A stretch of 63,848 bases of DNA, filler included, from Actinomycetota bacterium (GTDB lineage Bacteria; Actinomycetota; Actinomycetes; JAKEEW01), in the NCBI GenBank assembly GCA_046725875.1. It is 3 parts of 3 records of this genome, joined end to end, with 100 filler letters (N's around TTAATTAATTAA, not from the genome) between each part and the next. Parts side by side here need not be neighbours in the genome. Positions count along the whole stretch, not along the records: positions 24,300 to 55,395 come from JBKOZJ010000074.1; 2 more parts are not named here. One strand, written 5' to 3'. The notes beneath the pieces were generated by a model. It saw only the letters and a program-made list of their open reading frames with translations. It did not search any database and had not been told where the DNA came from. Numbering within the stretch: position 1 is the stretch's first letter; each line of letters begins with the position of its first letter. The translations under genes and the position numbers were made by a program. Positions 3,752 to 40,775 of the stretch are shown in pieces.

Positions 3752-4048
3752 TATGGATGCATCCTGAGGTCGAGGACGCCGCTGGACAAGGTCGTCGCTT
3801 CCGCCCCGGCGCAACACCAGACGGTGCTCCCTCCCGCCGTGCATGTCCGGCAGGCAGGTGTTCGCGCGCTACTGGCGTTACCCGTACCGCGTGGCGGGCG
3901 CAGGGTGAGTGCCAGCGCCATGTCGATTCCGGTCAGCACGACGCAGGTTAGGAATGCGGACTGGAAACTTGGTCAGCACGACGAGCGGGTTCGCCGCCGA
4001 GCGCGCATGACCGCACATTGAGCTGGCGCGACTTGCCCATGTGGTCGG

Positions 4049-6879: not shown

Positions 6880-6907
6880 CAGCTCCGAGGTCGTTTCAGC
6901 GGTCGCA

Positions 6908-6938
6908 ATACGATCCGGCGTCGCGCCGAAACTCATCG
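6908..6938 (-). promoter_or_regulatory. Candidate ECF (SigG-like) promoter for the MFS gene
   Basis: CGATGA-N18-ATCGTAT; same motif at 7101 and 8494. Confidence 0.6.
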
Positions 6939-7100
6939 GTCACGCGCGGCCGCGCTCGGGAGACGGCGCCGAACGATGACCTCGGCGCGGAGACTGAGCT
7001 GTCATGCTCCTGGCGGATCGAATGAGGTGACCGAACCCGCCGGCAGGCGGGCAGAGGTCCGGACACGAGGAGGCGGTCTCGACCAGCGCTCGGGCTGGAC

Positions 7101-7131: not shown

Positions 7132-7193
7132 CCGTGCCACCGTCGGGTCGAGCGCGAGGCCGATCGGCGATCGAAGGGAGTGGAGCCACGGCA

Positions 7194-10869: not shown

Positions 10870-11313
10870 ATGATGAGTTCGACAACGAGGCATCCCGCCC
10901 AGCTGAGGGACGTATACGAGCGGACGCGCACGATTGCTGTCGTCGGCGCGTCCGGCACCGGGGGGAAGGCGGCACACGTAATACCCGCCTACTTGCGGTC
11001 CCAGGGCTACCGGATAATCCCCGTCAATCCACGAGGTGGGACGATCTTTGGCGAGCGGGTTTACACCTCGCTCAGAGCAATAGCGGAGACGGTCGACGTC
11101 GTCGATGTGTTCAGGCCGCCGGAGGAAGCCGTGGCCGTAGCCAAGGACGCGATCGCGATTGGCGCCAAGGTGCTCTGGTTCCAGCTCGGTACCGAGACTG
11201 ACGAAGCGGTGCGCCTCGCGGAGGAGGCAGGGCTGACCGTCGTGACGGGCTGCTGCATGGGCGACCAGCATGGCCGGCTTGGCCTTGGTCCTGGACCCGA
11301 TCGCCGCGACTAA
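10870..11313 (+). CDS. CoA-binding protein (YccU-like)
   Basis: TIAVVGAS, GYRIIPVNP, VDVVDVFRP, VLWFQLG. Confidence 0.9.
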   Translation: MMSSTTRHPAQLRDVYERTRTIAVVGASGTGGKAAHVIPAYLRSQGYRIIPVNPRGGTIFGERVYTSLRAIAETVDVVDVFRPPEEAVAVAKDAIAIGAKVLWFQLGTETDEAVRLAEEAGLTVVTGCCMGDQHGRLGLGPGPDRRD

Positions 11314-14210: not shown

Positions 14211-14761
14211 TAGGAGTCCCCACCTCCTGCCAGCATCCCGCCAAACTGCCGAAGAAAAAGACTAAGCATCCTCTCCGAGCGCAGAACGACGACGGCCCGG
14301 CCCTCGAGTCGCGGCGACGGCCGCAACGACGCCACGTCGGCGTCCGGTGCGAGGACCCCCGTGACCAGCACAGCCGGCTCGGAAAACGAAGCGAAGCCGG
14401 CCTGGCGAACGCCAGCCTGATCGGCGACGTCGGCCCTGATCACGCGGGCGGCAAGAGGCTTCCCGTCCCCGCCGTCCATCTGGAGGCGGACGAGCTGGCC
14501 GCGCTGGAGATCTGGAGAGGCGGCGGCCGGGACAAGGGCCACGAAGGTCCGTTCCTGCATGTTGATCAAGGCTGGCCCCGACGTGGTCTCGGAGGTGCGA
14601 ACCGTAGCGGCGACGACGACACCCGCAACCACCAACGCCAGCACGATCCAATACAGCCACCCGGTCCACGGAGGTTCGATCCGCAGCACGCCGCCTTGTC
14701 CAGGCCCGCTGACTCGGAAGTCGAGGGCCTCTTGGCGGAACAGGGATGGTCGTTCGGTCAT
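14210..14761 (-). CDS. Short HlyD/membrane-fusion-protein-like accessory protein
   Basis: N-terminal SLFRQEAL followed by one TM helix, as in peptide-export HlyD proteins; only 183 aa; overlaps both neighbours. Confidence 0.6.
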   Translation of the reverse strand: MTERPSLFRQEALDFRVSGPGQGGVLRIEPPWTGWLYWIVLALVVAGVVVAATVRTSETTSGPALINMQERTFVALVPAAASPDLQRGQLVRLQMDGGDGKPLAARVIRADVADQAGVRQAGFASFSEPAVLVTGVLAPDADVASLRPSPRLEGRAVVVLRSERMLSLFLRQFGGMLAGGGDS

Positions 14762-17700
14762 GACGGGACGGATCGGCGCCCAGCCTGGGCACTGTAGGCG
14801 CGGTCGAGTAGTTCGTAGAGGACGAGCTCCTGGGCCCGGTGGGCGGAGCGCAGCAAGCGATTGACGTGCATGTGCGCGTAGCTCATCGCGATGTCGGTAA
14901 GCCTCGCCGACAGCCGCCCGGCCTGGCCGAGCCGACGCAGCTCCGCCGTGACGGGAGCGAGCTGAAGCGATCGCCGGCGCAGCGCCTCCACTCCCGCAAG
15001 AAGAGGCGCCGGCGGAGCCTGTCCGGGATCAAGCAGCGCCTCCAGGCGGGCCCGCTCCGCCCTGTACCGGTCGCTCACCCGACCCCTGAAGTTCCCGTCG
15101 ATACCGAACTCCCGACCGAGGCCCTCCCGCGCCCGTCGTGCCAGGGATCGCTTCTCCTCGAGTGCCAGTCCGAGATCGTCGAAGAGCAGGTCCATGCCGC
15201 GGATGGCCAGACGCCAGCGCAGGTCGAGTCCGGCATCGCCCGACAACAGCCCGAGGATGGTGAGCACGGCTTCGCTGTCGGCGGCGAACACCAGCTCGGC
15301 CAGCTCGATCGCTCGGTCGCCGCCGAAGCGCTCGACCTCCCGCTCATAGGTGTCCAGCTGCATGCGCCACAGCTGCCCCGCCTCGAGGAGCGGGGCCGCG
15401 GCTGCTTCCAGGCTCGGTAGCACCTCGGCGTGGAGCCGCCCGGGTTCGCCGTGAAGACGGAGTCGCAGGTGCCACTCGGGATCGCTATAGCGAATGAAGA
15501 ACCAGGCGTCGGCGGTGCCGGAGGCGAGAGATGACCGTACCAAGGGGCCAACCAGGTGGTTGAGCACGTGGTCGGCCGTTCCCGCGCCCGTATAGAGCTT
15601 GGCGTAGAGCCACTCCGAGCCCGGTGGGAAGCGGCGACCGACCAGGCTGCTGGTAACGTGCCGGGCCGCGAAGTCGGGCTCGGGTCGCGGCGGGGCCGCC
15701 TGGATGAACGGAACGACCAGCTCGTGCACGAAACGGCCTTCCGGGCCGATGACACACAGTTCATCGGGGTCGGGGAACATCTCGACGAGTTCTGCCTGGC
15801 GTCGCCCCCGGAGCTGGCGAGCGAGCGCCGCGACGCTCAGCACGTTGTCGAGGTCGATGACGAGCTGGTGGTCACGATCGATGAGGGCCACGTAGCGCGG
15901 CAGCCGCCGCTCCGCGCGCCACGCTTGCACGGCGGCGAACTGGTCGGCAGTCCCGGTCTGGCCGAGCGCCAGCAGTTCGGCCTCCGTGAGGTTCCAGCGA
16001 GCGCGGGACAGCACGAGCCGTCCGCTGACGACCCGAGGCAGGAAGGGGGCTTGCCGGAGCGGACCCCAGTCCCACGTGAGGTCCGAGACCGCGTCCTGGC
16101 GCTGGAGCGCGCACAGGAAGCGGTACACGCCCAGGTTCCGCCAGTCCTCGTCGTGGGCGGTGGTGAGCCTCGGCGCGACCTCGCGCCCCAGACGCCGGGA
16201 GCGCAGAACGATCCGGTCGTTGCGCACCGATACCAGCAGGTCCGTTACGTGAAGCTGGCGGTCGGCCGGCGCGCCCGAGCGGCCGAGGTAGGGGATCTCG
16301 TACTCCCGCAACACAGGACGGCACAGGATGTTGCCGGTCCGGCCGTCGGGAAGATGCACGATCTCCGCGAACAACTGCTCGGGGTGGCGTGCCTCCTCCG
16401 CCTGGAGATAGGCGTGGACGAACTCGTGCAGGGCCCGGTCGGCGTGGCAGAAGCGGCCGAGCATCAGAGCGCCAGGCGGCCCGTCCACATACTGCAGGAG
16501 TACGCGGAACGCACCTTGCGCGATGGCGCGGTCGGACTCGGCCGCCACCGTGGCCATCGCGTAGAAGGCATCAGGGAGTGGACGATGCTGCTGCGAGGCC
16601 AGCGCCTCGAGGTCGGATGCCTCGAGCGCGATCTCGCCGGCCCCCTCGGCAAGCGCGTGCGCCAGCTTTCCCAGGAGCAATGCGTCGCGCCCGGTCCATG
16701 GCATCGCCTCTCGATCACCAGCGCGGAACGGGAGCCCGGCCAGCAGCGGAGAGGCCTCGGCCAGCGGCGAGTCGGACCGCTCGAAGCCGATGCCGAGCTC
16801 CTCGTCCAGCGCTTCGACCAGCGGGATCTCCCGAGTCTCGTAGCGCTTGGAGAATTTTTCGCGAAACCGCGCCAGGCCTCCAGGCCCTTGAGGACGAGCC
16901 AGCTGATGGAGGATCCTGACGCCTCGCGTGATCTCGGAGACGACCCGGCTGCCGAGCGTGGCCTCCTGGGCGGGTTTGACCAGGTCGACCTGCACCAGAC
17001 GGGACAGGTCGGGCTGAGCGGGGAGATCCGAAAGGTCCGAGGCGACGGCTCGATAGCGGTCGGGGGAGGCCCCCAGCCCCGCGGCGTCGATCGCCTCGAG
17101 GGCGGCCCGCGCCTCGTCGAGCCGCTTGGCGATCCGTGCCGTCTCTGCGTGAGCGCGCAACGTGGCGACCAGGCCGTGCACCGGCTCGTCTCCCGTGACG
17201 ACCGGCCGGGCGTCGCTGACGAGGAGCTGGTTGTCGACCAGCTCCGCCACGTATTCCTCAGCCTCGGCCTGGGTGATCTCGTCGTCGACCAACACCTCCG
17301 CCGCGGCCTCCGGCGTCGTTCCTCCTCGGGCCCGCTCGAGCACGGCGGTGAGATAGGGATTCTTGTCGACTGCGACGAGGTGGTAGGAGCGGCCGGTAGC
17401 GGTCAGCCGAGCTTCGGCCAGGCGCAGGCGACCAGCTGTCTCGTAGAGGCTGGAGTTGGGCTCGTACACGAACGGCTTGCGGAGCTGAGGGTCGCGCTCG
17501 ACGGCTTCGGCCAGCGCCCACAGGTAGTCCATGTCGAGCCGGCTATGACGTCGGTACCACTCCCGCGCCTTGAGGTGCAGCCTGGTGTGCGCGTCGATGG
17601 TGCCAGTGGTGATTCCTGCGAACAGACCAAAGGGGGTGGCTCGGGCCGCCGCTCGGCTGAAGTACGCCACCACGGCGGGCTCGAGCTTGCGGCCTCGTTC

Positions 17701-17988
17701 GCTGTCCGGATCCTTCTGCCAGACCTCGAGGGCCTCGTCCACGCTCGGTGAGGCGAGGAAGATCGCATCTCGCACCTCGGGACGGGTGACCGCCGCGAGG
17801 AGCCGGGCGCGGAGTCTGGCCCGGTCCCGCTCGAGGGCCGCCTCCAGGCGCTGGGGGTCGCCGAGCACGCCGATGGCTTCCAGTCCCTCACCCCAGGCCG
17901 CCATCTCCTCGAACGGCAACAATGGCGTCCGCAGAACGAAGAACCCCGACGGGGTGTATCGCTGGCCGGCCTTGTCGCGCTCAGTCAC
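14758..17988 (-). CDS. lanB: Class I lanthipeptide dehydratase (glutamylation and elimination domains)
   Basis: FVLRTPLLP, AYFSRAAARATPFGLFAG, WLYAKLY, WFFIRY.DP..HLRLR, YEREVERFGG, HMHVNRL; GTG start overlapping the lanC stop. Confidence 0.95.
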   Translation of the reverse strand: MTERDKAGQRYTPSGFFVLRTPLLPFEEMAAWGEGLEAIGVLGDPQRLEAALERDRARLRARLLAAVTRPEVRDAIFLASPSVDEALEVWQKDPDSERGRKLEPAVVAYFSRAAARATPFGLFAGITTGTIDAHTRLHLKAREWYRRHSRLDMDYLWALAEAVERDPQLRKPFVYEPNSSLYETAGRLRLAEARLTATGRSYHLVAVDKNPYLTAVLERARGGTTPEAAAEVLVDDEITQAEAEEYVAELVDNQLLVSDARPVVTGDEPVHGLVATLRAHAETARIAKRLDEARAALEAIDAAGLGASPDRYRAVASDLSDLPAQPDLSRLVQVDLVKPAQEATLGSRVVSEITRGVRILHQLARPQGPGGLARFREKFSKRYETREIPLVEALDEELGIGFERSDSPLAEASPLLAGLPFRAGDREAMPWTGRDALLLGKLAHALAEGAGEIALEASDLEALASQQHRPLPDAFYAMATVAAESDRAIAQGAFRVLLQYVDGPPGALMLGRFCHADRALHEFVHAYLQAEEARHPEQLFAEIVHLPDGRTGNILCRPVLREYEIPYLGRSGAPADRQLHVTDLLVSVRNDRIVLRSRRLGREVAPRLTTAHDEDWRNLGVYRFLCALQRQDAVSDLTWDWGPLRQAPFLPRVVSGRLVLSRARWNLTEAELLALGQTGTADQFAAVQAWRAERRLPRYVALIDRDHQLVIDLDNVLSVAALARQLRGRRQAELVEMFPDPDELCVIGPEGRFVHELVVPFIQAAPPRPEPDFAARHVTSSLVGRRFPPGSEWLYAKLYTGAGTADHVLNHLVGPLVRSSLASGTADAWFFIRYSDPEWHLRLRLHGEPGRLHAEVLPSLEAAAAPLLEAGQLWRMQLDTYEREVERFGGDRAIELAELVFAADSEAVLTILGLLSGDAGLDLRWRLAIRGMDLLFDDLGLALEEKRSLARRAREGLGREFGIDGNFRGRVSDRYRAERARLEALLDPGQAPPAPLLAGVEALRRRSLQLAPVTAELRRLGQAGRLSARLTDIAMSYAHMHVNRLLRSAHRAQELVLYELLDRAYSAQAGRRSVPS

Positions 17989-19366
17989 CTGAGGTGCCCG
18001 GATCAGGCTTCGGGGCCGAGACCAGGAACATCCGGTCCCAGGTGGGCTCGACGGATGTTGCCGCAGCCAACAGGACCAGGGCGACCCCGGCGGCTCCCTC
18101 GACGAGTTCGGTGCCGGTCCACGTCCACAGCTCCCGCTGGCCCGGGTCCCAGTTTCCCTCCACCCACGTGCCGCCGGCGTCTCTGGCCCGACGGTAGAAG
18201 CCGAGCGTGCGCTCCAGCCAGTACAGGGCGGCACGGCCGAGCTTGGGTTCCCCGGTGGCTTGGTACATGCGGTTGTAGAGATGGGCCAACCCGGCCGCTC
18301 CGTGGCAGAAGTTGGCGTTGACGACTCCGGTCTCTGACGTTGGCCGTTCCGCCGCCCGGCAGGCCAGCGCCACCGCCGAGCGCTCCCAGCCGGCATCACC
18401 CACGCCGCGCGCCGCGATCAAAAGGGCGGCCGCAATCCCGGGATCCCCGTAGCACCAGGCGCAACGGGCTGGCGACGGCTGGAAGGCTGGTGCCACCCAG
18501 ACGGGGAAGGTCGGGCCCGCTTCGGTCGGCACCGAATGCGCCAACAGCCAGCTCACAGCCCCCTCAAGGAGCGGGCGCGCCGTCACCTCCGCCACCCCGG
18601 CGCCGCATACGCTGCCAAGAAGGGCGATGGGCCCGGCCACGCCGTGGGCGACCCCCAGATCGGTGCGCCCGGACGGATACTGCTCCCGGGATTCTTGATC
18701 CAGTATCTCGGTGGGTGGCGTCCACCAGGAAAGCCCATGGTCGTCGTGCCGGGCGCACTCCTGCAGCCGCTCGACGACCCGGCGGAGGCATTCGATCGCG
18801 AGCGGGCGCGGGTACCGTTGCAGGGCGTACACGCCGAGACCAGTGAGGCCCACGACAAGGTCGTAGGGCGCCGACCACAGGTTGGGCCGCGACAAGAGTC
18901 GCAGAAGCGCGTCGTCGACTGCCTCGCCGCGGTCCTCTGCGTCCGGGTCGAGCATGCCGTCCACCAACTCGGCCGCCCAGGCCACGCCCGTGAACCCTCC
19001 GTAGAGGGAAGCGTTCATCGCCCGCGTCGACACCGCATCGACGGCCTGGTCGAGACACTGTGATGCGAGGACGTCCGCCTGCGGCATGCGGCAGGTCCGG
19101 GCCAGCCAGGTGTACAGGAGGGCCAGACCGGCCTGCCCCCTGCCGAGCGAAGGGTCTCGTTCGCCGGGTACTGCAGTCATCGACGTGATGGACTCGGTGA
19201 TGGCGTCGACTGCCTGCAGAGCCTGCTGCGCCGTTGCGCCCGACAAGATCGGTCGCCAGGAGCTTCCGCGGCCCGCATCACCCAGCGTCGGCGTGCGGCC
19301 AACCCCACTCCGCTCACCACGCAGGCCTATTCCGCCGTCAGGATTGCCTTGCACTACGTCGCTCAC
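17981..19366 (-). CDS. lanC: Lanthipeptide cyclase
   Basis: GVAHGVAG, WCYGDPG, FCHGAAG (Zn ligands C, C, H). Confidence 0.95.
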   Translation of the reverse strand: MSDVVQGNPDGGIGLRGERSGVGRTPTLGDAGRGSSWRPILSGATAQQALQAVDAITESITSMTAVPGERDPSLGRGQAGLALLYTWLARTCRMPQADVLASQCLDQAVDAVSTRAMNASLYGGFTGVAWAAELVDGMLDPDAEDRGEAVDDALLRLLSRPNLWSAPYDLVVGLTGLGVYALQRYPRPLAIECLRRVVERLQECARHDDHGLSWWTPPTEILDQESREQYPSGRTDLGVAHGVAGPIALLGSVCGAGVAEVTARPLLEGAVSWLLAHSVPTEAGPTFPVWVAPAFQPSPARCAWCYGDPGIAAALLIAARGVGDAGWERSAVALACRAAERPTSETGVVNANFCHGAAGLAHLYNRMYQATGEPKLGRAALYWLERTLGFYRRARDAGGTWVEGNWDPGQRELWTWTGTELVEGAAGVALVLLAAATSVEPTWDRMFLVSAPKPDPGTSGD

Positions 19367-24299: not shown

Positions 24300-24989
24300 G
24301 CCCTGCACAACTGCGGCGTCACGTTCGTGCTCGACCGGGCCGGCGTGACCGGCCCGGACGGGGCGAGCCACAACGGAATGTGGGACATGTCGGTCTTGCA
24401 GGTCGTGCCCGGCCTACGGATCGCGGCACCGCGCGATGCCGAGACCTTGCGCGCCGAGCTGTGCGAGGCAATCGAGGTACGGGACGCGCCGACGATCGTC
24501 CGGTTCCCCAAAGCACAGGTAGGACCGGACATCCCGGCCGTCGACCGAATCGGTGGCCTCGACCTCCTGCGCCGTGCCGGCGAGGAGGATGTGCTCATCG
24601 TTTCGATCGGCGCGCTGGCCAGTGACTGCCTCGACGTCGCCGTCCGCCTTGCCGACCAAGGCGTCGGGGTGACCGTCGTCGATCCGCGCTGGGTCAAGCC
24701 GGTCGATCCCGCACTCGTGACCCTCTCCGCTCGCCATCGGCTCGTCGTCACAGTCGAGGACAACAACCGTGTCGGCGGGGTCGGCTCCGCGATTGCCCAG
24801 ACACTGCGTGATGCGGGAGTGCCGACACCCGTGCGCGAGTTCGGGCTACCGCCCCGCTTCCTCGACCACGGCAAGCGGCCGGATGTTCTCGCCGAGTGCG
24901 GCCTTACCGGCCAGGACATCGCGCGCGACGTTGTCGCCGTCGTGGCCCGCCTGGACGCAGTACTTGAAGCGACCGACGTGATCGAGTGA
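24300..24989 (+). CDS. dxs: 1-deoxy-D-xylulose-5-phosphate synthase, C-terminal part
   Basis: [44 protein letters not shown]. Confidence 0.92.
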
Positions 24990-32838: not shown

Positions 32839-34437
32839 TCACTTAGTCCCATTGGCGAGGTCGCGCAGGATCTCCCGGCTGGCGAGCTTGCCCGGGGCGC
32901 CGATGACACAGCCGCCCGGATGAGTCCCCGACCCGCACTGGTAATAGCCCTCGAGCGGCGTACGGTACTGGCTCCACCCCGGCGCCGGTCGGAAGAAGTA
33001 CATCTGCGGTGCCAGAAACTCCCCGGCGAAGATGTTGCCTTCCGACAGGCCGACCACGCGCTCGATGTCCAGCGGCGTAACCACCTCGCGATGCAGGACC
33101 AGGTCGCCGAAACCGGGGAAGTGCGACTCCAGGACCGCCTGCACCGTGTCGGCGAACCGATCCCGCTCCGCGTCCCAGTCCCCGTCCTTGAGGTGGTAAG
33201 GCGCGTACTGGATGAAGCATGACATCACGTGCTTGCCCGGTGGGGCCATGTCCGGGTCGACGACCGACTGGATCGCACCATCGATGAACGGCCGGGAGCT
33301 GTACCAGCCGTACTTGGCGTCGTCGAACGCTCGTTCGAGGTATTCCATCGTCGGGCCGACGTTGATGAAGCCGCGGTAGTGGTCGGTGCGGTCGCCTAGC
33401 GCGGGATAGACCGGCAGCGCGTCGAGAGCGAAGTTGACCTTGGCGGAGGTGCCCTGGAAGCGGAGTCGGGTGATGCCCTCGACCAGGTCGCCCGGCAGCT
33501 CGCGGCGGTCGACCAGCTCGAGAAAGGTCTGCCGCGGGTCGAGCGCGCTGACCACGGTGCCGGCAGCGAGCTCGGTGCCATCGGCCAGCGCGACCCCGGT
33601 CGCCCGACCGTCCCGAGTGAGCACGGTTGCTACCGGCGATTCCAGCCGGATCTCCGCGCCGTACGCCTGCGCGGCTCGCGCCAGCACCTGGGTGAAGCCG
33701 CCGTTACCGCCCTTGTGGAATCCCCACGCTCCGAACTCGCCGTCGTGCTCGCCCAGCTTGTGGTAGAGCAAGACCAGCCCGGAGCCCTGCGACATCGGCC
33801 CGACCTTGGTCCCGATGATCCCGGACGAGGCCAGGTAGCCCTTGACGATGTCGCTGTCGAAATAGTCGTCGAGGAAGTCGGCCGCCGACCCGGTGAGCAG
33901 CCTGACCAGGTCGTGCATGACCTTCGGCTCCACGCCGCCGAGGTGGTTGGCCAGGTCGGCCACGGCCTCGAGGTCCTCCGGCGCCTTGCCCCAAAGGTTC
34001 GGGGGCGCCTTGTCCAGCAGCGGCTTGACCACCTGGCAGACCCGGTACATGTCGTGCTTGTAGCGCCCCCAGGCGTCCGCATCGTGCTTTGAGTGCCGCC
34101 TGATCTCCTGAACGTTTTCGTCGTCGTCCGGGCCGACGATGAGATAGTCGCCGTTCTCCATTGGGGCGAAGGACGAAGGCATCTCGATCGGCAAAAAGCC
34201 GTGCTCGACCAGCTGCAGCTCCTGGACGATATCGGGTCGGAGCAGGCTCAACGCGTACGAGAACGTCGTGAAGTGGAAGCCGGGGTAAAGCTCCTCGGTG
34301 ATCGCGGCGCCACCGACGAGATGGCGACGCTCGAGAATCAGGGTCCGCAGGCCGGCCTTCGCCAGATACGCGCCGCAGACGAGGCCGTTATGGCCGCCGC
34401 CGACGACGATCGCGTCGTACTCGGTGCTGGGTGTCAT
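32839..34437 (-). CDS. Phytoene desaturase-like FAD-dependent oxidoreductase (PYROXD2-like)
   Basis: VGGGHNGLV, ER...GGAA.TEE, TPLDIE...GNIF, CGSGTHPGG. Confidence 0.88.
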   Translation of the reverse strand: MTPSTEYDAIVVGGGHNGLVCGAYLAKAGLRTLILERRHLVGGAAITEELYPGFHFTTFSYALSLLRPDIVQELQLVEHGFLPIEMPSSFAPMENGDYLIVGPDDDENVQEIRRHSKHDADAWGRYKHDMYRVCQVVKPLLDKAPPNLWGKAPEDLEAVADLANHLGGVEPKVMHDLVRLLTGSAADFLDDYFDSDIVKGYLASSGIIGTKVGPMSQGSGLVLLYHKLGEHDGEFGAWGFHKGGNGGFTQVLARAAQAYGAEIRLESPVATVLTRDGRATGVALADGTELAAGTVVSALDPRQTFLELVDRRELPGDLVEGITRLRFQGTSAKVNFALDALPVYPALGDRTDHYRGFINVGPTMEYLERAFDDAKYGWYSSRPFIDGAIQSVVDPDMAPPGKHVMSCFIQYAPYHLKDGDWDAERDRFADTVQAVLESHFPGFGDLVLHREVVTPLDIERVVGLSEGNIFAGEFLAPQMYFFRPAPGWSQYRTPLEGYYQCGSGTHPGGCVIGAPGKLASREILRDLANGTK

Positions 34438-35642
34438 GGTTGGGCCGTCTTTCGCTCGGGGTTGAACAGCGGCAGCCGAGCCACCCGGGATCGGACCCGC
34501 TGGTACGCGTGGTCGATCGTGATCTCGACAGCTACCTGCGTGTCAGGTGCGGCATATGCCGGCCGAAGGCGGGCCAGGCCGACGTGGCGCTGCAGCACGG
34601 GAGAGTACATCAGCGTGGTGGCATAGCCGATCCGGTCGGAGTCGTCGGCGTCGTACACCATCGACTCGTACGGTAGCGGCGTCGAGTCCTTCGGCGGGAT
34701 CAGACCGGCTTCGGTGTGCAGCCGGTCATACTCGCGCCAGTCGAGCACGATGCCCACCATGGCCCAGCGCGTGGTGTTGCCGGCGAGCTCGTGTCGGATC
34801 GCGTCGCGCCCGATGAACGGCCGGCCGTCGTCTTCGATGCCCCGCAGCATCCAGCCCAGGCCGAGTTCCTTCGCCGTGAAGCGGTCTTGGTCGGTGTAGG
34901 CCAGCCGGCTCGAGCTGAACTCCCGGTCGATCAGCAGCAGGCCGGCTTCGATCCGGGCCATGAGCAGCGCCTCCTCGCCGTACGGGCGGATGCCGTGGCC
35001 AGCGCCGGCGTCGAGCACAGCGTCGAGTACGGCAACCGCGTCGTCGGCCGGCACGAAGATCTCGAAGCCTAGGTCGCCGGTGTATCCGGTCCGCGAGATC
35101 GTGACCGAGACGGTACCGATCTTGGTGGCGCAGTGGTCGAAGTACCGCAGGCCGTTGACGTCGGGAGTCAGCGTGCCCAGGACCGTTCGGGACCGTGGCC
35201 CTTGGACGGCGAGCACACCGTAGTCGTCGCTGACGTCCTCGATCGCGACCTCGTAGCCGCGGGCGAGGTCGCTAAGGTAGCCCAGGTTCGGGCGCGCCGC
35301 GGTCAGGAAGAATTCCGTGTCGGAGTGGCGGAAGAAGACACCGTCCTCGAGCACGTAACCGCGCTCGTCGCACCACACCGAGTACTGTGCGTGGCCGGGC
35401 CGGCACCTCCGGATGTCTCGGGTGAGTACGCCGGCAAGGTAGCGCTCGGCGTCGCGCCCCCGGATCCAGTACTTGAACAACTGCGAGGTGTCGAACACCC
35501 CGACGCTGTTGCGGATCGCGAAGTACTCGTGCTTGGCCGACATGTCGTACTTGATCGCGGACAGGTGGCCGGACCAGTGGGTCCACAGCCCGGTGCGGTT
35601 GAGCTCCGCCAGCCGTTCGTAGAACGGGGTGGTTTTGACCAT
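34434..35642 (-). CDS. Aminomethyltransferase (GcvT-like folate-binding) protein
   Basis: KTTPF, IRNSVGVFDTS, AVQGPRS, SRTGYTGDLGFE, RIEAG; ATGA overlap with the downstream oxidoreductase. Confidence 0.9.
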   Translation of the reverse strand: MVKTTPFYERLAELNRTGLWTHWSGHLSAIKYDMSAKHEYFAIRNSVGVFDTSQLFKYWIRGRDAERYLAGVLTRDIRRCRPGHAQYSVWCDERGYVLEDGVFFRHSDTEFFLTAARPNLGYLSDLARGYEVAIEDVSDDYGVLAVQGPRSRTVLGTLTPDVNGLRYFDHCATKIGTVSVTISRTGYTGDLGFEIFVPADDAVAVLDAVLDAGAGHGIRPYGEEALLMARIEAGLLLIDREFSSSRLAYTDQDRFTAKELGLGWMLRGIEDDGRPFIGRDAIRHELAGNTTRWAMVGIVLDWREYDRLHTEAGLIPPKDSTPLPYESMVYDADDSDRIGYATTLMYSPVLQRHVGLARLRPAYAAPDTQVAVEITIDHAYQRVRSRVARLPLFNPERKTAQP

Positions 35643-35683
35643 GTCCGCACCCTAGGTGCTTACGCGTCGGCTTGGGTATCCCC

Positions 35684-35703
35684 TACTGACTCATCGATCA
35701 GTA
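35684..35703. promoter_or_regulatory. Palindromic operator, copy 1
   Basis: TACTGAC-TCATCG-ATCAGTA. Confidence 0.7.
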
Positions 35704-35804
35704 CTAGGGATCAGCAGTGACCGTGGCCACGGCCGGCTGCGCTTTCGTCGAACCTCACGGACAAGTAACACCGATGTGACGCTTGGGACGTCCCGGCTTG
35801 CCGA

Positions 35805-35824
35805 GACTGATGTATCGATCAGTA
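35805..35824. promoter_or_regulatory. Palindromic operator, copy 2
   Basis: GACTGAT-GTATCG-ATCAGTA. Confidence 0.65.
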
Positions 35825-35881
35825 TCGTGACATCGCTGGCGTCGGGCGATACCCTCTGTTCGGCGCAGGAGGAGGAAGATC

Positions 35882-36799
35882 ATGCGAAGGTCTCCGATTG
35901 TCCTGTCGGTGCTCTCCGTGCTGGCCCTGGCCGTCGCCGGGTGCGGGTCGGACGACGATGACAACACCGGCGCGGCACCGAGCGCGGCAGCGACCGGAAG
36001 TGTCTGCGAGAAGAACCAGACCACTGGAGATCTCCTCGCCCAGGTCTGTGACCGGGGCAAGATCATGGTTTCGACCGACCCGGCTTACCCGCCGCAGTCA
36101 TCGCTGGACGAGAAGACCGGCAAGTACGAGGGCTTCGACATCGACGTGGCCACCGAGATCGCCGACCGGCTCGGCGTTGACATCGGGTGGCAAACGCCAC
36201 AGTGGGACGTCATCACGGCCGGCAGCTGGAACGGCCGTTGGGACATGAGCGTCGGCTCGATGACCCCGACAAACGATCGGCAGAAGGTGCTCGACTTCAC
36301 CGAGCCGTACTACTACACCCCGGCAGTCGTGGTGGTGCACAAGGACAACACTTCGGTCCAGGACCTGTCGACCAACCTGGATGGTGCCGATATCGGTGTC
36401 TGCAGTGCCTGCACATACGAGCAATATCTGGACAAGAAGCTTGACATCAAGGGCTACACGTTCGACTTCGTCATCGACAACGCGAAGGTCCACGGCTATG
36501 ACACCGACACGACCGCGCTGCAGGACCTGGCCCTGGGTGACGGCACCCGACTCGACGCGGTGATCACGTCCCTGACGACGGCACAGGGCTTCGAAGACAG
36601 CGGTAAGCCAGTGAAGATCGTCGGCGACCCGGTCTTCTACGAGCCGCTCGCGGTCTCGTTCGACAAGAGTTCGCAGGCCGACGACACGAGCCTGGTCCAG
36701 GCGGTGGACGGCATCGTCAAGGAGATGCATTCCGACGGCACCCTGACCGAGCTGTCGAAGAAGTGGTACGACGGAACAGACCTCACGGTCCAACAGTGA
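35882..36799 (+). CDS. Polar amino acid ABC substrate-binding lipoprotein
   Basis: Lipobox VAGC, STDPAYPP, GFDIDVA, GSMTPT.DR..LDFT.PYY. Confidence 0.92.
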   Translation: MRRSPIVLSVLSVLALAVAGCGSDDDDNTGAAPSAAATGSVCEKNQTTGDLLAQVCDRGKIMVSTDPAYPPQSSLDEKTGKYEGFDIDVATEIADRLGVDIGWQTPQWDVITAGSWNGRWDMSVGSMTPTNDRQKVLDFTEPYYYTPAVVVVHKDNTSVQDLSTNLDGADIGVCSACTYEQYLDKKLDIKGYTFDFVIDNAKVHGYDTDTTALQDLALGDGTRLDAVITSLTTAQGFEDSGKPVKIVGDPVFYEPLAVSFDKSSQADDTSLVQAVDGIVKEMHSDGTLTELSKKWYDGTDLTVQQ

Positions 36800-37737
36800 C
36801 GTCGGTGGGCGACCGGCTGGACCGGCTGGGCGCCGCTAGTGCCCGGGTCCCCTTCCGGCTGAAGGTGGCGCTCGTCTGGGTCGCCCTCTTTGCCGTGCTG
36901 GCCGGGGTCTTCGCCGCTGCCCAGTTCGACACGGACTGGATGCGGGACCAGTTGTGGTACATCGCCCAGGGGCTGCGGTACACGCTCTACATCGCCGTCG
37001 GTGGCATCGCGCTGGCGATCGTGCTCGCCCTGCTCGGTGCTCTCGCGCGCATCTCGTCGAACCCGATTGCGTATGGGATCTCCGGTTTCTATGTGTCGTT
37101 CTTCCGCGGCACGCCGCTGATCGTACAGATGTTCCTCATTTACCTGGCCATGCCGCAGATCGGGATCAACCTGCACGACCGCTATCCCGATGTCTTCCCG
37201 CAGTCGTTCGCCAACTCGCTCGTCCTGGACGCCGCGGTCGCCGGGACGATCGCCCTCGGGCTCAACTACGGCGCCTATATGACCGAGATCTTCCGAGCGG
37301 GCATCCAGTCGGTCGCGGCCGGCCAGGGGGAGGCGGCCGATGCGCTCGGCATGACCTACGGGCAGAAGATGCGGAAGGTCGTGCTGCCGCAGGGCTTCCG
37401 GGTGATCATCCCGCCGACCGGGAACGAGTTCATCGCGATGATGAAGGACACGGCGCTCGTCTCGTTCCTGGGCGTGACGGCGGCCAACGCCGAGATCTTC
37501 CGCCGAGCGCAGCTGGTCGGCAAGGCGGACTTCAAGAATCTCGAGGCGTATGTGATCGCTGCCGGTCTGTACTGGGGGCTGACCGTTATCTTCACCTTCT
37601 TCCAGCGCAGGCTGGAGACCCGGGTGTCGCGCGGGTACGTCCGCACGGCAGCACTTCCGCGCGATCATGACCTGCCACCACCCGAGCCGCTACCGCATGG
37701 CAAGGGCGGCGGCATCGCAGGCGGCGGCGTCGCATGA
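36796..37737 (+). CDS. Polar amino acid ABC permease
   Basis: [34 protein letters not shown] overlap. Confidence 0.92.
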
Positions 37738-38597
37738 GCGCGCCGCAGTCCGACGGTCTCGCGCCCGCAGGTACCACGCTCGGGATCCGAGACGACGTGT
37801 CAGAGCGCAAAACCGTACGCGTGACCGCGGAGACAAGTCGCATGAACGAGGTCGTCATCCGGGTCGATAACCTGCACAAGCGGTTCGGCCAGCTCGAGGT
37901 GGTCAGGGGCGTCGACCTGGAGCTACGCGGGGGGGAGGTCGTCGTGGTATTCGGCCGGTCAGGATCGGGCAAGTCGACCCTGCTGCGTTGCATCAACTTC
38001 CTCGAGGATCCGACGCGAGGCACGATCGAAGTGGCCGGCATGCGGCTGTCCGGCGGCCACCGCACTCGCCGAAAGCGCGAGCAGATCCGCCGGCTTCGGC
38101 TGCACGTCGGGATGGTCTTCCAGCAGTTCAACCTCTTCCCACACATGACGGCTCTGGAAAACGTGATGGTCGCGCCGGTGTCCGCCGGCCTCGGTCCCCG
38201 GGCCGTGCTGCGGGCTCGGGCGGTCGAGCAGCTCGAGCGGGTGGGCCTGCTGGACAAGGCCGACGAGCATCCGATCCGGTTGTCGGGCGGCCAGCAGCAG
38301 CGGGTGGCGATCGCTCGTGCTCTGGCGATGCAGCCGGACGCGATGCTCTTCGACGAGCCGACCTCGGCACTTGACCCTGAGCTCATCGGAGAGGTGCTGG
38401 CCGTGATGAAGTCGCTCGCGACCGACGTGCACATGCCGATGATCGTCATCACTCACGAGATGGGCTTCGCGCGCGAGGTCGCCGACCGGATGATGTTCTT
38501 CCACGAGGGCGTGATCTGGGAGGAGGGGTCCCCGGACAAGATCTTCGATGCCACCCAGCGGCCGGAGACGCGGCGGTTCCTCGACGCTGTGCTCTGA
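37734..38597 (+). CDS. Polar amino acid ABC ATPase
   Basis: [41 protein letters not shown]. Confidence 0.93.
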
Positions 38598-38685
38598 ACC
38601 GGCCGACGCGACCTTCCGGTGGCTCCCAGATGCCGGCCTGGGTGCGCACGGCACGCCGGATCACGACATGGACCGGGTGTGCGGC

Positions 38686-39798
38686 TCAACTCGTGTAGGC
38701 GGCGCAGACCATCGCGACGAACTGCCCGACGGCATCCTCGCGGGGGGCGAATGGGCCGGGTTGGAAGTGCGGCGAGCCGACTCCGCGCTGGACCGACTCG
38801 CAGGCGGCCCAGTCCTGCCGGTTGGTCAGGTCCCAGAAGTCGACGGCGTAGGCCGGGTCGACCTCCTCGTCGGCGAAGTACCAGCTGCACTCGATCCAGG
38901 TCCGGTCGGGCGCGACGGGCACCAGCCGGTGCGTCATGACATAGTCCGGGTGGGCCGAGACCAGCAGGTTGGGCCATATCTGGACGTACTCCACCACCCG
39001 CGCGTCGACGCCGGGAATCGGAGTGCCGGCGGACTGGCCGGTGAGCGACATCGTGGCCATCTGCTCGCGCAGATACATCCGGCCGCCGACCCATTGGCCG
39101 GGCAGGTCGTAGTTGCTGCCGGAGTCAGGTGGTGACACACGGCAAAGCTCGGGGTGGATTCGCGGGCAGTGGTAGCACTCGTGGTAGTTCTCGCACACCA
39201 CTTTCCAGTTGGCGGCGACGTCATAGGTGTGCCGGGCGCGGCGGACCAGCCGCTCGGCGCCGTACGGTGCGAGGACTGGCTCGAGTGCGCCGATGTGATC
39301 GGCAAAGTCTGGCTCTCCTTGGCCGAGCGCTGTGGCCGCATGGCAGAAGACCCAGCCGTGCCAGGTCACGACCGGCACCTCAACCAAGCGGTACTCATCG
39401 GGGTCGAAGCCCTCGGCGTCGCGGAAACCCGGTGCCTGCTGCAGCATGCCATCCAGGGTGTACGACCAGGCGTGGTAGGGACACACCACGGACCGGCGCG
39501 AGCTCGACTGACCGGCCGGCAACAGCTCGTGGCCGCGGTGCCGGCAGATGTTGGCGAACGCCCGCATGCCCTCCGCGGTCCAGGTCAGCAGCACGCCAAG
39601 GTCACCAACCGCCACGGCCCGCTGTCCGGCCGTGTCCTCGGCAACCTCGTCGGCTCGGCCGAGGCAGTACCAGCTGCCGGCGAACACCTGACGCTGCTCC
39701 CAGGCGTACACGTCGGCCGAGGTGTACGCCGCTCCTGGCAGCATCGCCGAACCGTCGTGCCGCCGCGCGGCCTCGAGCACCGCGTCCAAAACCGTCAT
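38686..39798 (-). CDS. Rieske oxygenase alpha subunit (glycine-betaine/choline monooxygenase-like)
   Basis: CRHRG...CPYHAW Rieske site; ENYHECYHC..IHP and QDW..CE.VQ.G iron site; start uncertain (39798 or 39888). Confidence 0.9.
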   Translation of the reverse strand: MTVLDAVLEAARRHDGSAMLPGAAYTSADVYAWEQRQVFAGSWYCLGRADEVAEDTAGQRAVAVGDLGVLLTWTAEGMRAFANICRHRGHELLPAGQSSSRRSVVCPYHAWSYTLDGMLQQAPGFRDAEGFDPDEYRLVEVPVVTWHGWVFCHAATALGQGEPDFADHIGALEPVLAPYGAERLVRRARHTYDVAANWKVVCENYHECYHCPRIHPELCRVSPPDSGSNYDLPGQWVGGRMYLREQMATMSLTGQSAGTPIPGVDARVVEYVQIWPNLLVSAHPDYVMTHRLVPVAPDRTWIECSWYFADEEVDPAYAVDFWDLTNRQDWAACESVQRGVGSPHFQPGPFAPREDAVGQFVAMVCAAYTS

Positions 39799-39877
39799 CG
39801 CCACCCCTGCGCGTAGGACTTGTTGCCATGGAAGGGCACGCCGCAACGCCAAGGCCCGCCGCGCGCGGCCGTCGACA

Positions 39878-39897
39878 TACTGACTCATGAGTCAGTA
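39878..39897. promoter_or_regulatory. Palindromic operator, copy 3 (perfect)
   Basis: TACTGACTCATGAGTCAGTA, 20-bp perfect palindrome. Confidence 0.75.
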
Positions 39898-40100
39898 CGT
39901 AAGCCTGCCACGGGCCGGGACGCGACGAAAGCCCTCCCCGGCGCGCACCACGCGGTCGGGTTGGCGCAGTGGAGCGTTCGCACGTCGGGACATATTGTCG
40001 ATCGCGGGATTCCGGGCAGGTGGCCCGGAGGTACTTCCTGCGCATACAACGAGCCCGGAATGGACCGCGTCCCGCGGACCAGTGGAGCGGTGAGTCGGCA

Positions 40101-40775
40101 GTGCTAGTTATTGCACATCGGTTTGGGAACCAGGTCGCGGACCTTCGGGTAGCGCTGGACGCGGGTGTCGACCTCGTCGAGGCCGACGTTCACCTCTACC
40201 GGCGGGAGCTGGAGATACGGCACGAGAAGACGCTCGGTCCGCACCTGCTCTGGGACAAGGGTCAGCTAGTCCGACGCAAGGGAATGACCCTGCCCGATCT
40301 GGCCGCCGTTCTCGCCGAGCTCGGCGAAGACGACGCGCGCCTGATGCTCGACCTAAAGGGCATCCGCCGTAACCTCGCGCCGCAGGTCGCCCGACTGCTG
40401 CAGGCGCTCGTACCAGGGCTGCCGGTGACGGTTTGCACGAAGCACTGGTGGATGTTCGATGCGTTCGCCGGCGATCCGCACGTTCGCTTGGTGCCGTCGG
40501 CCGGTACTCGCGCACACCTCACCCGGTTGCGCCGCCGGCTTCGCATAGTCAAGGCGGTCGCCGGGCGCCGACCCTTCGCGCTTTCGCTTCGCCACACAAT
40601 CCTGACGCCGGCGGTCGTCGACGAGCTCCACCACACTGTGGACCGGATATTCGTTTGGCCGATCAACACCCGCTCGGACCTCGAGCATGCGCTTTCGCTT
40701 GGTGCAGACGGTGTAATCAGCAGAAACATCGAACTGCTCCGCGAGCTCGTCCAGGCACGGCGTTCGGCGGGTTAA
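40101..40775 (+). CDS. Glycerophosphodiester phosphodiesterase-like protein
   Basis: IAHR.GN, VEADVH, LDLKG, VWPIN...GADGVIS. Confidence 0.8.
   Translation: MLVIAHRFGNQVADLRVALDAGVDLVEADVHLYRRELEIRHEKTLGPHLLWDKGQLVRRKGMTLPDLAAVLAELGEDDARLMLDLKGIRRNLAPQVARLLQALVPGLPVTVCTKHWWMFDAFAGDPHVRLVPSAGTRAHLTRLRRRLRIVKAVAGRRPFALSLRHTILTPAVVDELHHTVDRIFVWPINTRSDLEHALSLGADGVISRNIELLRELVQARRSAG

Follow-up and report, generated by a model that had tools for sequence, protein, structure and literature searches.

Three transcription units of an Actinomycetota bacterium are each preceded by a copy of the same palindrome. Do they form one regulon, and if so, what does it degrade? The earlier note on this DNA had read them as a pathway for the import and sequential N-demethylation of methylated amines. 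We analysed the whole stretch (63.8 kb, hereafter the window) together with related loci and genomes. The comparative genomics lends this reading in silico support: the units probably make up a TetR-controlled regulon that combines an importer, a quaternary-amine Rieske oxygenase and a GcvT-like/flavoprotein pair for N-demethylation onto folate.

Three operator copies and the genes behind them

The motif, TACTGAY-N6-RTCAGTA, is a 20-base palindrome. A search of the whole window for TACTGAYNNNNNNRTCAGTA with up to two mismatches returned three matches (chance expectation, 0.03), and none of 100 shuffles held three or more. We also built a weight matrix from 41 distinct sites, taken from relatives and the window; only the same three sites, O1, O2 and O3, reach 14 bits or more in the window. 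Pattern search, shuffles and matrix thus confirm what had been claimed, one copy ahead of each unit (Table 1). The units are a GcvT-like gene with a flavoprotein gene, a polar amino acid ABC importer, and a Rieske oxygenase gene, and the sites lie 41–79 nt ahead of them. Pfam and NCBIfam bear out the gene identities given earlier. The closest PDB entries of the binding protein are cationic amino acid binders (AncQR, AncCDT-1, the Thermus LAO-type 3vv5, ArtJ and LAO).

Table 1. Features of the locus, in window coordinates
Feature	Position	Strand	Details
CrtO/CrtI-family (PYROXD2-like) FAD flavoprotein	32839..34437	-	532 aa; Pfam Amino_oxidase, NAD_binding_8, DAO
Stand-alone GcvT-like folate-binding protein	34434..35642	-	402 aa; Pfam GCV_T (E 1.5e-57), GCV_T_C
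O1, TACTGACTCATCGATCAGTA	35684..35703		0 mismatches; 30.5 bits; ends 41 nt before GcvT-like ATG (35642, minus strand)
O2, GACTGATGTATCGATCAGTA	35805..35824		1 mismatch (first base G); 20.5 bits; ends 57 nt before binding-protein ATG (35882)
Solute-binding lipoprotein, family 3 (polar or cationic amino acid type)	35882..36799	+	Pfam SBP_bac_3
ABC permease	36763..37737	+	Pfam BPD_transp_1; TIGR01726; true start may be downstream of 36763
ABC ATPase	37734..38597	+	Pfam ABC_tran
Rieske non-haem iron oxygenase alpha subunit, Stc2/CntA/GbcA group	38686..39798	-	370 aa; Pfam Rieske, Ring_hydroxyl_A
O3, TACTGACTCATGAGTCAGTA	39878..39897		0 mismatches, perfect palindrome; 32.6 bits; 79 nt upstream of Rieske ATG (39798)
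Divergent ORF, faintly glycerophosphodiester phosphodiesterase-like	39969..40775	+	268 aa; Pfam GDPD E 0.0019, 18.8 bits, below cutoff 23.6

Two details concern the surroundings of O3. An alternative, longer Rieske ORF starts at 39888 and would overlap the site; the start at 39798 appears likelier because the N-terminus it yields, MTVLDAV, is common to the orthologue in locus L001. O3 also lies 71 nt upstream of the divergent ORF, whose membership of the regulon is uncertain: its coding-type base periodicity sets in from ∼40050, and no homologue was found in loci L001–L080 at E 1e-20.

The promoters were inspected as well. By eye, O2 is flanked by the hexamers TTGCCG and TATCGT; a consensus promoter scan found no promoter hexamers around this site. 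A conserved TAGGGT hexamer, read by eye as a −10 box, lies ∼29 nt downstream of the end of O1. This would place O1 unusually far upstream for a TetR operator, which counts against our main reading.

The operator and a candidate BetI-type TetR regulator in relatives

Conservation in orthologous loci had been named as a test that could refute the regulon. In 18 of 52 assessable related loci the motif (up to two mismatches) stands no more than 200 nt ahead of the GcvT orthologue. Another 16 carry a divergent paralogous TetR (33–48% identical) and no motif. At this threshold the remaining 18 have neither, which counts against our main reading, but at least five of them show three-mismatch versions at the same position. 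The O1 position is conserved in L100 and many other related loci, the closest relatives (L100, L103 and L104) have aligned sites ahead of the binding-protein gene, and in L002, L003, L004, L008, L010, L024 and L027 the operator adjoins Rieske or flavoprotein genes. It is very rare genome-wide: 15 genomes of relatives, scanned with up to one mismatch, contain 31 sites versus 3 for the reversed control pattern, and the annotated sites adjoin regulon-type genes.

The earlier note saw no cognate regulator in the locus and predicted a co-occurring TetR-type protein. Both points held. A tblastn search of the window revealed no TetR homologue, so the regulator would act in trans. In relatives, comparison of sequences supports a TetR-type regulator that tracks the operator: all seven site-bearing genomes tested (G001–G007) encode, 1.1–11.2 kb from a site, an orthologue (47–100% identical to the L003 protein) with TetR_N and BetI-type TetR_C_6 domains, whereas the orthologue is missing from the three genomes with no convincing sites (G008–G010; best TetR match 32–38%). 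In the recognition helix the orthologues have a common signature, G(V/I)S..L.(F/H)YHF, distinct from that of paralogues. A BetI-type TetR homologue occurs in 39 of 80 Rieske loci, and in relatives the TetR gene adjoins a Rieske gene (Rieske1). The short intergenic region between these two genes contains no operator site, so there is no sign of the usual autoregulation, and it is co-occurrence that ties TetR to the operator.

This missing site would be expected if a different regulator bound the palindrome and the nearby TetR had other targets. Moreover, genome G012 encodes a second TetR, 31% identical, whose gene has a site 25 nt upstream; the palindrome might thus serve more than one protein. 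However, the helix of this paralogue is similar (GVSTGLLHYHF), the motif is absent from every GcvT locus that has the different, divergent TetR, and the orthologue follows presence and absence of sites in all ten genomes. An inverted repeat of 7+7 bp also suits a TetR dimer. We consider another regulator unlikely, and retain the BetI-type TetR as the candidate repressor.

A GcvT-like/flavoprotein pair and a probable quaternary-amine Rieske enzyme

The GcvT-like protein and the flavoprotein had been proposed to work like a split dimethylglycine dehydrogenase. This idea gains support from the gene pair, from a complex model, and from an operator that precedes purU in one relative (see below). 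The flavoprotein ATG overlaps the GcvT-like TGA stop (ATGA). The two genes are adjacent in all 42 full-length related loci, the flavoprotein starting between 4 nt inside and 19 nt beyond the GcvT stop, with the 4-nt overlap in 26 of them. Annotation of a Shinella plasmid shows the same module together with Rieske and TetR genes. The GcvT-like protein falls below the cutoffs of the NCBIfam GcvT equivalogs; in the PDB it comes closest to the C-terminal domain of TMAO demethylase (9q59, E 6e-42).

Modelling supports binding of the flavoprotein to the GcvT-like protein. Over three runs the complex model had a median score of 0.64 (0.23, 0.72 and 0.64), while the best of three controls scored 0.00. 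Such a mark was attained by 58 of 80 solved complexes, compared with 2 of 110 mismatched pairs, counts that hold only roughly here, the model having been built on custom alignments. Between runs, at least 88% of the contacts coincide, and the partner has a pLDDT of at least 91. On the other side, one run scored just 0.23, and the flavoprotein model is poor (pLDDT 59.5).

What does the flavoprotein do? Its closest PDB entry is CrtI (4dgk, E 8e-18) and its best NCBIfam match is CrtO, at 260 bits versus a cutoff of 1000, a score that rules out a ketolase. The named members of the family act on carotenoids, and it could be a desaturase of lipids or carotenoids, linked to the other genes by the repressor alone. 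Another option is that it supplies the Rieske enzyme with electrons: in 26 of 80 loci CrtO-like paralogues are encoded no more than 400 nt from a Rieske gene, and the window offers no canonical Rieske reductase. Either role is very unlikely in our judgement. In every one of the 42 loci this subfamily is tightly paired with the GcvT-like protein, mostly with no Rieske gene nearby, and the complex model favours contact between the two. Pfam finds just one dinucleotide-binding fold in the flavoprotein, and the scores are far below those set for carotenoid enzymes. A passage of PMC12010460 describes finch PYROXD2, said there to be CrtO-like, as lacking carotenoid activity. An amine oxidoreductase remains our preferred assignment.

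The Rieske protein carries the cluster motif C85-x-H-x17-C-x2-H109 and the ENxxECYHC motif, as ENYHECYHCPRIHP (residues 203–216). The earlier note would have been contradicted by an enzyme for aromatics, and the Pfam family of the protein is indeed named for ring hydroxylation, with weak matches to anthranilate and benzoate dioxygenases. However, the closest solved relatives are Stc2 (3vca, 4qup) and CntA (6y8j), at E ∼1e-36 versus 1e-17 or weaker for the aromatic dioxygenases, the iron-site motif matches the Stc2/CntA form, and there is no beta subunit gene. The protein thus appears to be of the quaternary-amine type; an aromatic or other non-amine substrate, with co-regulation for another reason, is most improbable. 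Its orthology is less sure than that of the pair, since the closest relative has a single homologue, at 64–66% identity, versus 89–92% for the GcvT-like protein and the flavoprotein. As already noted from the sequence, the locus has no Rieske reductase gene, either in the window or in the closest relatives: among the 51 window ORFs scanned (13 + 38), none has a ferredoxin/FNR-type reductase domain. The lack of an evident electron supply for the enzyme counts against our reading.

Substrate, proposed pathway and known systems

In relatives, the operator also fronts a second Rieske gene, Rieske2, followed by an MTOX/MSOX-type N-methyl-amino-acid oxidase (NCBIfam 260.3 bits versus cutoff 257), as well as peptide importers, S9, S15, S58 and M14 peptidases, a deacetylase-like amidohydrolase and purU. 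The purU site, 54 nt before the gene in G006, would fit carbon flow through folate; the gene product scores 435.8 bits in NCBIfam versus a cutoff of 223. This gene content points to N-methylated amino acids from peptides as substrate, with methylated lysines or amino acid betaines as leading candidates.

Alternatively, the regulon might be the actinobacterial version of the classical route from glycine betaine through dimethylglycine and sarcosine to glycine. The Rieske enzyme would then play the part of GbcA, the flavoprotein/GcvT pair that of dimethylglycine dehydrogenase, and the MSOX-like oxidase found in relatives that of sarcosine oxidase. In NCBIfam both Rieske proteins match GbcA best and the regulator matches BetI best, and the oxidase and purU of the regulon in relatives would have their place. 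Yet GbcA is matched at 158 and 171 bits versus a cutoff of 670, the importer is of a polar/cationic amino acid type (Dpp type in relatives) and not an OpuA/ProU or BCCT betaine carrier, and the peptidases and amidohydrolase would be left unaccounted for. The glycine betaine route seems improbable, and we favour methylated amino acids.

We propose that a BetI-type TetR repressor, encoded elsewhere in the genome, binds the palindromes as its operators. A methylated amine or a breakdown product would bind the repressor and release the three units together. A flavin cannot oxidise a methyl group on a quaternary nitrogen; after import, the Rieske monooxygenase would hydroxylate one such group. In complex with the GcvT-like protein, the flavoprotein would then oxidise the remaining N-methyl groups, and the one-carbon unit would be caught on tetrahydrofolate.

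Such a scheme would resemble dimethylglycine dehydrogenase/oxidase, sarcosine dehydrogenase and heterotetrameric sarcosine oxidase, whose flavin oxidises an N-methyl amine while the carbon passes to tetrahydrofolate in a GcvT-fold domain; the GcvT-like protein here matches such domains. In those enzymes, however, a DAO-type flavin domain is fused to, or shares a subunit with, the GcvT domain, whereas here a CrtI/CrtO flavoprotein (amine-oxidase fold), of predicted activity, is a separate polypeptide.

With Stc2 (stachydrine demethylase), CntA (carnitine monooxygenase) and GbcA (glycine betaine monooxygenase), its closest structures and best NCBIfam match, the Rieske enzyme shares an alpha-only organisation and the ENxxECYHCxxxHP iron site. 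It differs in aligning modestly (128 bits with Stc2, and below the GbcA cutoff) and in having no partner reductase gene nearby.

BetI, the choline-responsive TetR-family repressor of the bet genes, has an operator also built on TGA...TCA half-sites. The regulator of the relatives has the same domain types and likewise appears to control methylated-amine catabolism through a palindrome. At 68 bits versus the BetI cutoff of 201 it is not a BetI orthologue, and its operator sequence and target genes differ, in a dispersed regulon.

Finally, one enzyme of the regulon resembles an unexplained human protein, the orphan mitochondrial flavoprotein PYROXD2. The likeness is by way of CrtO and of the Atlas clusters nearest the window flavoprotein, auto-named PYROXD2-like; human PYROXD2 has no known GcvT-like partner. 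Finch PYROXD2 is given as ∼35% identical to Synechocystis CrtO (in a passage of PMC12010460), and the reaction of the human protein is described as unknown (in the abstract of PMC8777681). Its variants are stated to explain ∼50% of the variance in human plasma N6-methyllysine and 48% for N6,N6-dimethyllysine (in passages of PMC8109053), and to associate with trimethylamine and dimethylamine (in passages of PMC3169529). These associations fit an N-methyl amine oxidoreductase.

Candidate operator sites and genes of the locus

We scanned the window for the pattern TACTGAY-N6-RTCAGTA, tolerating up to two mismatches. The three copies that an earlier note had claimed from the sequence were confirmed, O1 and O3 without a mismatch and O2 with one (see table), and they were exactly the three matches in the window, against 0.03 expected by chance and none of 100 shuffles containing three. 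A weight matrix built from 41 distinct sites reached 14 bits or more in the window only at O1, O2 and O3 (30.5, 20.5 and 32.6 bits, respectively). The candidate operator is an inverted repeat of 7 + 7 bp around a 6-bp spacer, and it stands 41–79 nt upstream of three start codons. Across the 41 distinct sites the arms are kept, with variation in the spacer. A reading of the sites as REP elements or terminator hairpins was rejected on their number per genome (0–5), their placing in promoter regions, and the combination of conserved arms with a variable spacer.

Profile searches bore out the gene identities that had been proposed for the locus. The window has a G+C content of 66.8% and is actinobacterial by its best relatives, the Nocardioidaceae. 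For the Rieske gene, we favoured the start at 39798 over another ATG farther upstream (39888), since the orthologue in a relative's locus, L001, has the same N-terminus, MTVLDAV.

Features of the window, with positions along the joined stretch
Feature	Position	Strand	Remark
O1	35684		End 41 nt ahead of the ATG of the GcvT-like gene
O2	35805		End 57 nt ahead of the ATG of the binding-protein gene
O3	39878		79 nt ahead of the Rieske ATG at 39798
CrtO/CrtI-family flavoprotein	32839-34437	minus	
GcvT-like protein	34434-35642	minus	Stop overlaps the flavoprotein start (ATGA)
Family-3 binding protein, permease and ATPase	35882-38597	plus	
Rieske oxygenase alpha subunit	38686-39798	minus	
LanB-like dehydratase	14758-18399	minus	
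LanC-like cyclase	17981-19366	minus	
C39-peptidase ABC exporter	12048-14210	minus	

Scans for consensus sigma-70 promoters and terminators around O1–O3 and downstream of the flavoprotein gene returned no promoter-like site. All hexamers named here, -10-like ones included, were read by eye. A TAGGGT or TAGTGT hexamer is conserved 6–9 nt before the ATG of the GcvT-like gene, both in the window (35643–35660) and in the relatives' loci L100–L104, and this placing suggests a leaderless transcript of that gene. In L002–L004, the starts of the TetR genes are closely preceded by a complementary hexamer (CCCTA-type on the strand shown). No RNA runs were listed for the 7-kb stretch; four soil-metagenome DNA runs were, with small shares (0.06–0.07).

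An ORF at 39969–40775 (+), divergent from the Rieske gene across O3, shows base periodicity of the coding type and faintly resembles glycerophosphodiester phosphodiesterases, with a score under the cutoff (E 0.0019); no homologue of it was found among 80 Rieske loci of relatives. Elsewhere in the window lie a class I lanthipeptide-type gene set (12048–19366, minus strand) and genes for two ECF-like sigma-70 factors, both with a SnoaL-like domain fused at the C-terminus (7134–8198, plus; 9030–10076, minus). In a 220-aa ORF (24327–24989, plus), a transketolase is represented by its C-terminal part alone, namely the end of the pyrimidine-binding domain and the C-terminal domain; the gene may have been split or truncated.

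Recurrence of the candidate operator and a putative TetR repressor

We wondered whether the motif is kept in relatives, a check that the earlier note had proposed for orthologous loci. Of 55 loci fetched around GcvT-like proteins, 52 were assessable, with 200 nt or more of sequence ahead of the GcvT orthologue, and 18 of these carry the motif (up to two mismatches) within that 200-nt stretch. The others comprise 16 loci with a divergent gene for a paralogous TetR, 33–48% identical to the reference TetR of L003, and 18 loci with neither; the motif is found in 0 of the 16. Within the group that has neither, L101, L102, L103, L104 and L107 show versions with three mismatches at the equivalent position. 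The site of L117 stands 229 nt upstream of the GcvT-like gene, and alignment of the divergent region revealed that O1 and O2 are both kept in place in L100, L103 and L104. In a second set, 80 loci (1.13 Mb) around relatives of the Rieske protein, the motif occurred 11 times at up to two mismatches, in 8 loci. The matches in L002, L003, L004, L008, L010, L024 and L027 are intergenic and adjoin Rieske, flavoprotein or ABC transporter genes; the match in L038 may be due to chance.

We also scanned the genomes of 15 relatives (G001–G015) with at most one mismatch, using the reversed pattern as a control. The operator pattern gave 31 sites in total (3, 1, 2, 2, 1, 4, 2, 2, 0, 0, 3, 5, 4, 1 and 1, in order), versus 3 matches of the control in the same genomes. 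The single sites of G002 (2.9 Mb) and G005 (4.5 Mb) both fall inside the Rieske/flavoprotein locus. The two one-mismatch sites of G008 look different from the rest and are probably chance matches. The data for L002, L088, L089 and L091 rest on G001, an unpublished genome.

In three loci (L113:5870-5889, L117:4027-4046 and L088:1501-1520), a one-mismatch copy falls within the 5' part of the coding sequence of an S9 peptidase gene, ∼220 nt past the start. It codes for T-D-S-S-V-S-W using ACT and AGT codons, which are expected to be rare in these G+C-rich genomes. This copy may serve the divergent Dpp operon as an embedded operator, act as a roadblock, or be a coincidence of the coding sequence.

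The locus had been said to contain no cognate regulator, and tblastn indeed found no TetR homologue in the window. The co-occurring TetR-type regulator that the earlier note proposed to look for was found in all seven site-bearing genomes tested. In L001, L003 and L004, a gene with TetR_N and TetR_C_6 domains (Pfam; the latter is the BetI-type C-terminal domain) stands back to back with the Rieske orthologue, and tblastn placed a TetR gene in the same arrangement in L002 and L008. G001–G007 each code for an orthologue 47–100% identical to the L003 TetR, 1.1–11.2 kb from a site. The best TetR match was 32–33% in G009 and G010, which have no site, and 38% in G008, which has doubtful sites only. 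The orthologues share the recognition-helix signature G(V/I)S..L.(F/H)YHF; the corresponding helix reads GTSSGL.HHYF in the GcvT-adjacent paralogues and GASPALVIYYF in a third group. The L003 TetR scored 68.4 bits against the BetI equivalog TIGR03384 (cutoff 201.3) and thus falls short of BetI proper.

Two traits of a TetR system were found together by comparison: an inverted-repeat operator in the promoter regions of the targets, and a TetR gene that co-occurs with it. On the complete chromosome of G006, a site of the GcvT–flavoprotein pair is at 3.22 Mb and the TetR gene at 0.49 Mb. This distance is a direct precedent for what we propose for the window, namely scattered targets under a repressor that acts in trans. 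Autoregulation of the TetR is not evident, because no site was found in the short intergenic regions between the TetR gene and its adjoining Rieske gene (Rieske1), and this counts against the TetR assignment.

Two further regulator genes were seen. In L192 (from G012), a second BetI-type TetR (3681–4373) is 31% identical to the main one and has a similar recognition helix; a copy of the operator (3656–3675) precedes the start of this TetR gene by 25 nt, and a gene for a PotD-type binding protein follows. In L020, from Kineosporia, the stretch between the paralogous TetR gene and the GcvT-like gene (10912–11049) contains another palindrome, CACCTG...CAGGTG, which is probably that paralogue's own operator.

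The enzymes and the wider predicted regulon

The GcvT-like protein has the GCV_T folate-binding fold (Pfam) and scores below the thresholds for GcvT proper (136 versus 235.85 bits for TIGR00528; 184 versus 300 for NF001567). Its closest match is the C-terminal domain of trimethylamine N-oxide (TMAO) demethylase, and no GcvH- or GcvP-type family was detected by Pfam among 51 window ORFs. The flavoprotein belongs to the CrtI/CrtO family, with CrtO as its best family match, yet lies far under every carotenoid-enzyme cutoff (CrtO, 260.5 versus 1000 bits; crtI_fam, 97.4 versus 238.1 bits).

The two genes are tightly joined. In all 42 loci with both genes at full length, the flavoprotein start falls between 4 nt inside and 19 nt beyond the GcvT stop, and 26 of the 42 have the 4-nt overlap seen in the window; 13 other loci, with one gene cut off or under the full-length filter, were excluded from this count. 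We modelled the two proteins as a complex and obtained scores of 0.23, 0.72 and 0.64 (median 0.64), versus 0.00 for the best of three controls. Among solved complexes, 58 of 80 reach this mark, and among mismatched pairs 2 of 110; with our own 39-row alignments for each protein, these counts hold only roughly here. At least 88% of the contacts agreed between runs, and the pLDDT of the partner was at least 91. A score owed to memorised structures seems unlikely because, to our knowledge, there is no solved complex of the two families. The model supports the prediction that the flavoprotein binds the GcvT-like protein. A structure model of the flavoprotein, built with 39 close orthologues, was of low quality (mean pLDDT 59.5, pTM 0.61).

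The Rieske oxygenase carries the CxH...CxxH cluster ligands (C85 to H109) and the iron-site motif ENxxECYHCxxxHP at residues 203–216 (ENYHECYHCPRIHP), which aligns with the motifs of Stc2 and CntA. The earlier note had named action on aromatics as one of the findings that would speak against its reading. We found the enzyme closest to Stc2 and CntA (E 3e-36 to 2e-35), with aromatic enzymes at 2e-17 or weaker; these closest solved relatives are ∼20 orders of magnitude in E-value ahead of the aromatic dioxygenases. It scored 157.7 bits against the GbcA equivalog NF058607 (cutoff 670) and is thus not a GbcA orthologue. Also as claimed, no Rieske reductase of the GbcB/CntB type is present among the 51 window ORFs scanned, and the annotated loci of relatives have no dedicated reductase gene either. 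Flavoprotein paralogues occur within 400 nt of the Rieske gene in 26 of the 80 Rieske loci. The module also occurs as an annotated cluster on a Shinella plasmid, where a TetR gene is grouped with genes for two flavoproteins of this kind, an aminomethyltransferase-family protein, the alpha subunit of a Rieske enzyme, an aminotransferase of class III and an ABC importer.

What else do the sites adjoin? In many loci it is the GcvT–flavoprotein pair, and L089 has a further flavoprotein paralogue beside a site. A family-3 ABC importer lies next to sites in L100, L101, L103 and L104, orthologues of the importer genes accompany the pair in 11 of 55 loci, and Dpp-type importers are among the site-adjoining genes of relatives. 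Peptidase genes recur: S58 and S15 (CocE/NonD) types, an S9 peptidase nearest to oligopeptidase B, and, in L101, M14 carboxypeptidases. A site of G006 lies between the start of an S58 gene and a divergent gene for a deacetylase-like amidohydrolase; G011 and G012 have S58/S15 peptidase and deacetylase-like amidohydrolase gene types near a site. Also next to sites in G012 are an amidohydrolase gene and a gene pair for a TetR and a binding protein. A second Rieske gene (Rieske2) followed by an MTOX/MSOX-type N-methyl-amino-acid oxidase gene (260.3 bits, cutoff 257) also stands beside sites, and in G006 a site is 54 nt before the purU start. In L189, from the closest relative (G011), the ORF after the operator (5953–7044, plus) combines the N-terminal domain of a Rieske protein with a C-terminal portion from a DAO-type oxidase; a deletion that merged Rieske2 and the oxidase could explain this, as could a fault of the assembly.

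The presence of the GcvT-like protein alongside purU and an MSOX-type oxidase argues that the pathway would yield one-carbon units on folate from N-methyl groups. The context of the CrtO/PYROXD2-like flavoprotein strongly suggests folate-linked N-demethylation, because the GcvT-like gene is directly ahead of it, it appears to be co-regulated with a quaternary-amine Rieske enzyme, and in relatives the operator also stands before the N-methyl-amino-acid oxidase and purU genes.

Proposed pathway, substrate and relation to known systems

Taken together, these results give in silico support to the interpretation of the earlier note, an N-methylamine import and demethylation regulon. We propose that a BetI-type TetR, coded elsewhere in the genome, would repress the three units through O1–O3, and that the repression would be relieved by a methylated amine taken up by the cell, or by one of its products. 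The Rieske oxygenase would take a methyl group off a quaternary nitrogen, and a flavoprotein/GcvT-like complex would strip further methyl groups and transfer them to tetrahydrofolate. The comparative evidence supports the regulatory architecture in silico; the reaction steps are all inferred from family membership and gene context.

Which amine might be imported? The closest matches of the binding protein are binders of cationic amino acids. Where AncQR has the Asp of 'DAVVTD', which probably binds the alpha-amino group, the window protein has the Ser of 'DAVITS', a difference to which we attach no weight. Methylated lysines are the leading specific candidate, a choice that we make tentatively because of the cationic-type binding protein, the peptide importers, peptidases and deacetylase-like enzyme of relatives, and the leads from PYROXD2; amino acid betaines, glycine or proline betaine included, come next.

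The flavoprotein is among Atlas clusters auto-named after PYROXD2, and this likeness rests on the cluster names and a shared link to CrtO. Finch PYROXD2 is reported to be ∼35% identical to Synechocystis CrtO and to show no carotenoid activity (PMC12010460). In human studies, the molecular function of PYROXD2 is described as little known (PMC8777681), and the locus ranks with the strongest metabolite QTLs for methyl-lysines: its variants account for 50% of the variance of N6-methyllysine and 48% of that of N6,N6-dimethyllysine, and associate with trimethyllysine and N-methylpipecolate (PMC8109053) as well as with trimethylamine and dimethylamine (PMC3169529). We make no claim of a link to N,N,N-trimethyl-alanylproline betaine, which PMC8109053 does not connect with PYROXD2.

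It is conceivable, albeit doubtful, that the locus salvages mono-, di- and trimethyllysine (or similar compounds) from imported peptides. The Rieske enzyme would remove the first methyl group of the quaternary form, and the flavoprotein/GcvT pair would move the rest onto folate as a bacterial counterpart of PYROXD2, itself an enzyme that would clear free N6-methyl- and N6,N6-dimethyllysine. Pointers to this salvage are the likeness to cationic binders; the S9, S15, S58 and M14 peptidases of relatives, with their deacetylase-like amidohydrolase and Dpp importers; the class-III aminotransferase beside the module on the Shinella plasmid; and the effects of the human PYROXD2 locus. A literature search, with subscription journals largely outside its scope, returned no paper tying PYROXD2 to tetrahydrofolate-dependent chemistry or GcvT-type proteins, none tying a Rieske enzyme to trimethyllysine, and none on this gene combination.

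For what would be an uncharacterised way of breaking down methylated amines in soil Actinomycetota, the analysis supplies a defined operator with a predicted repressor, and a reconstruction of the regulon. It also bears, testably, on an orphan human enzyme, PYROXD2, and cultured Nocardioides with the operator and the TetR make the question accessible to ordinary genetics and enzymology. The kinds of system are already known, the TetR regulon as well as folate-linked oxidative N-demethylation. In DMGDH, DMGO and sarcosine dehydrogenase, a DAO-type flavin domain is fused to a GcvT domain, whereas in the window the two parts are separate genes and the flavoprotein matches mainly the Amino_oxidase and CrtI families. 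The pair may work like these enzymes without being a member of their group.
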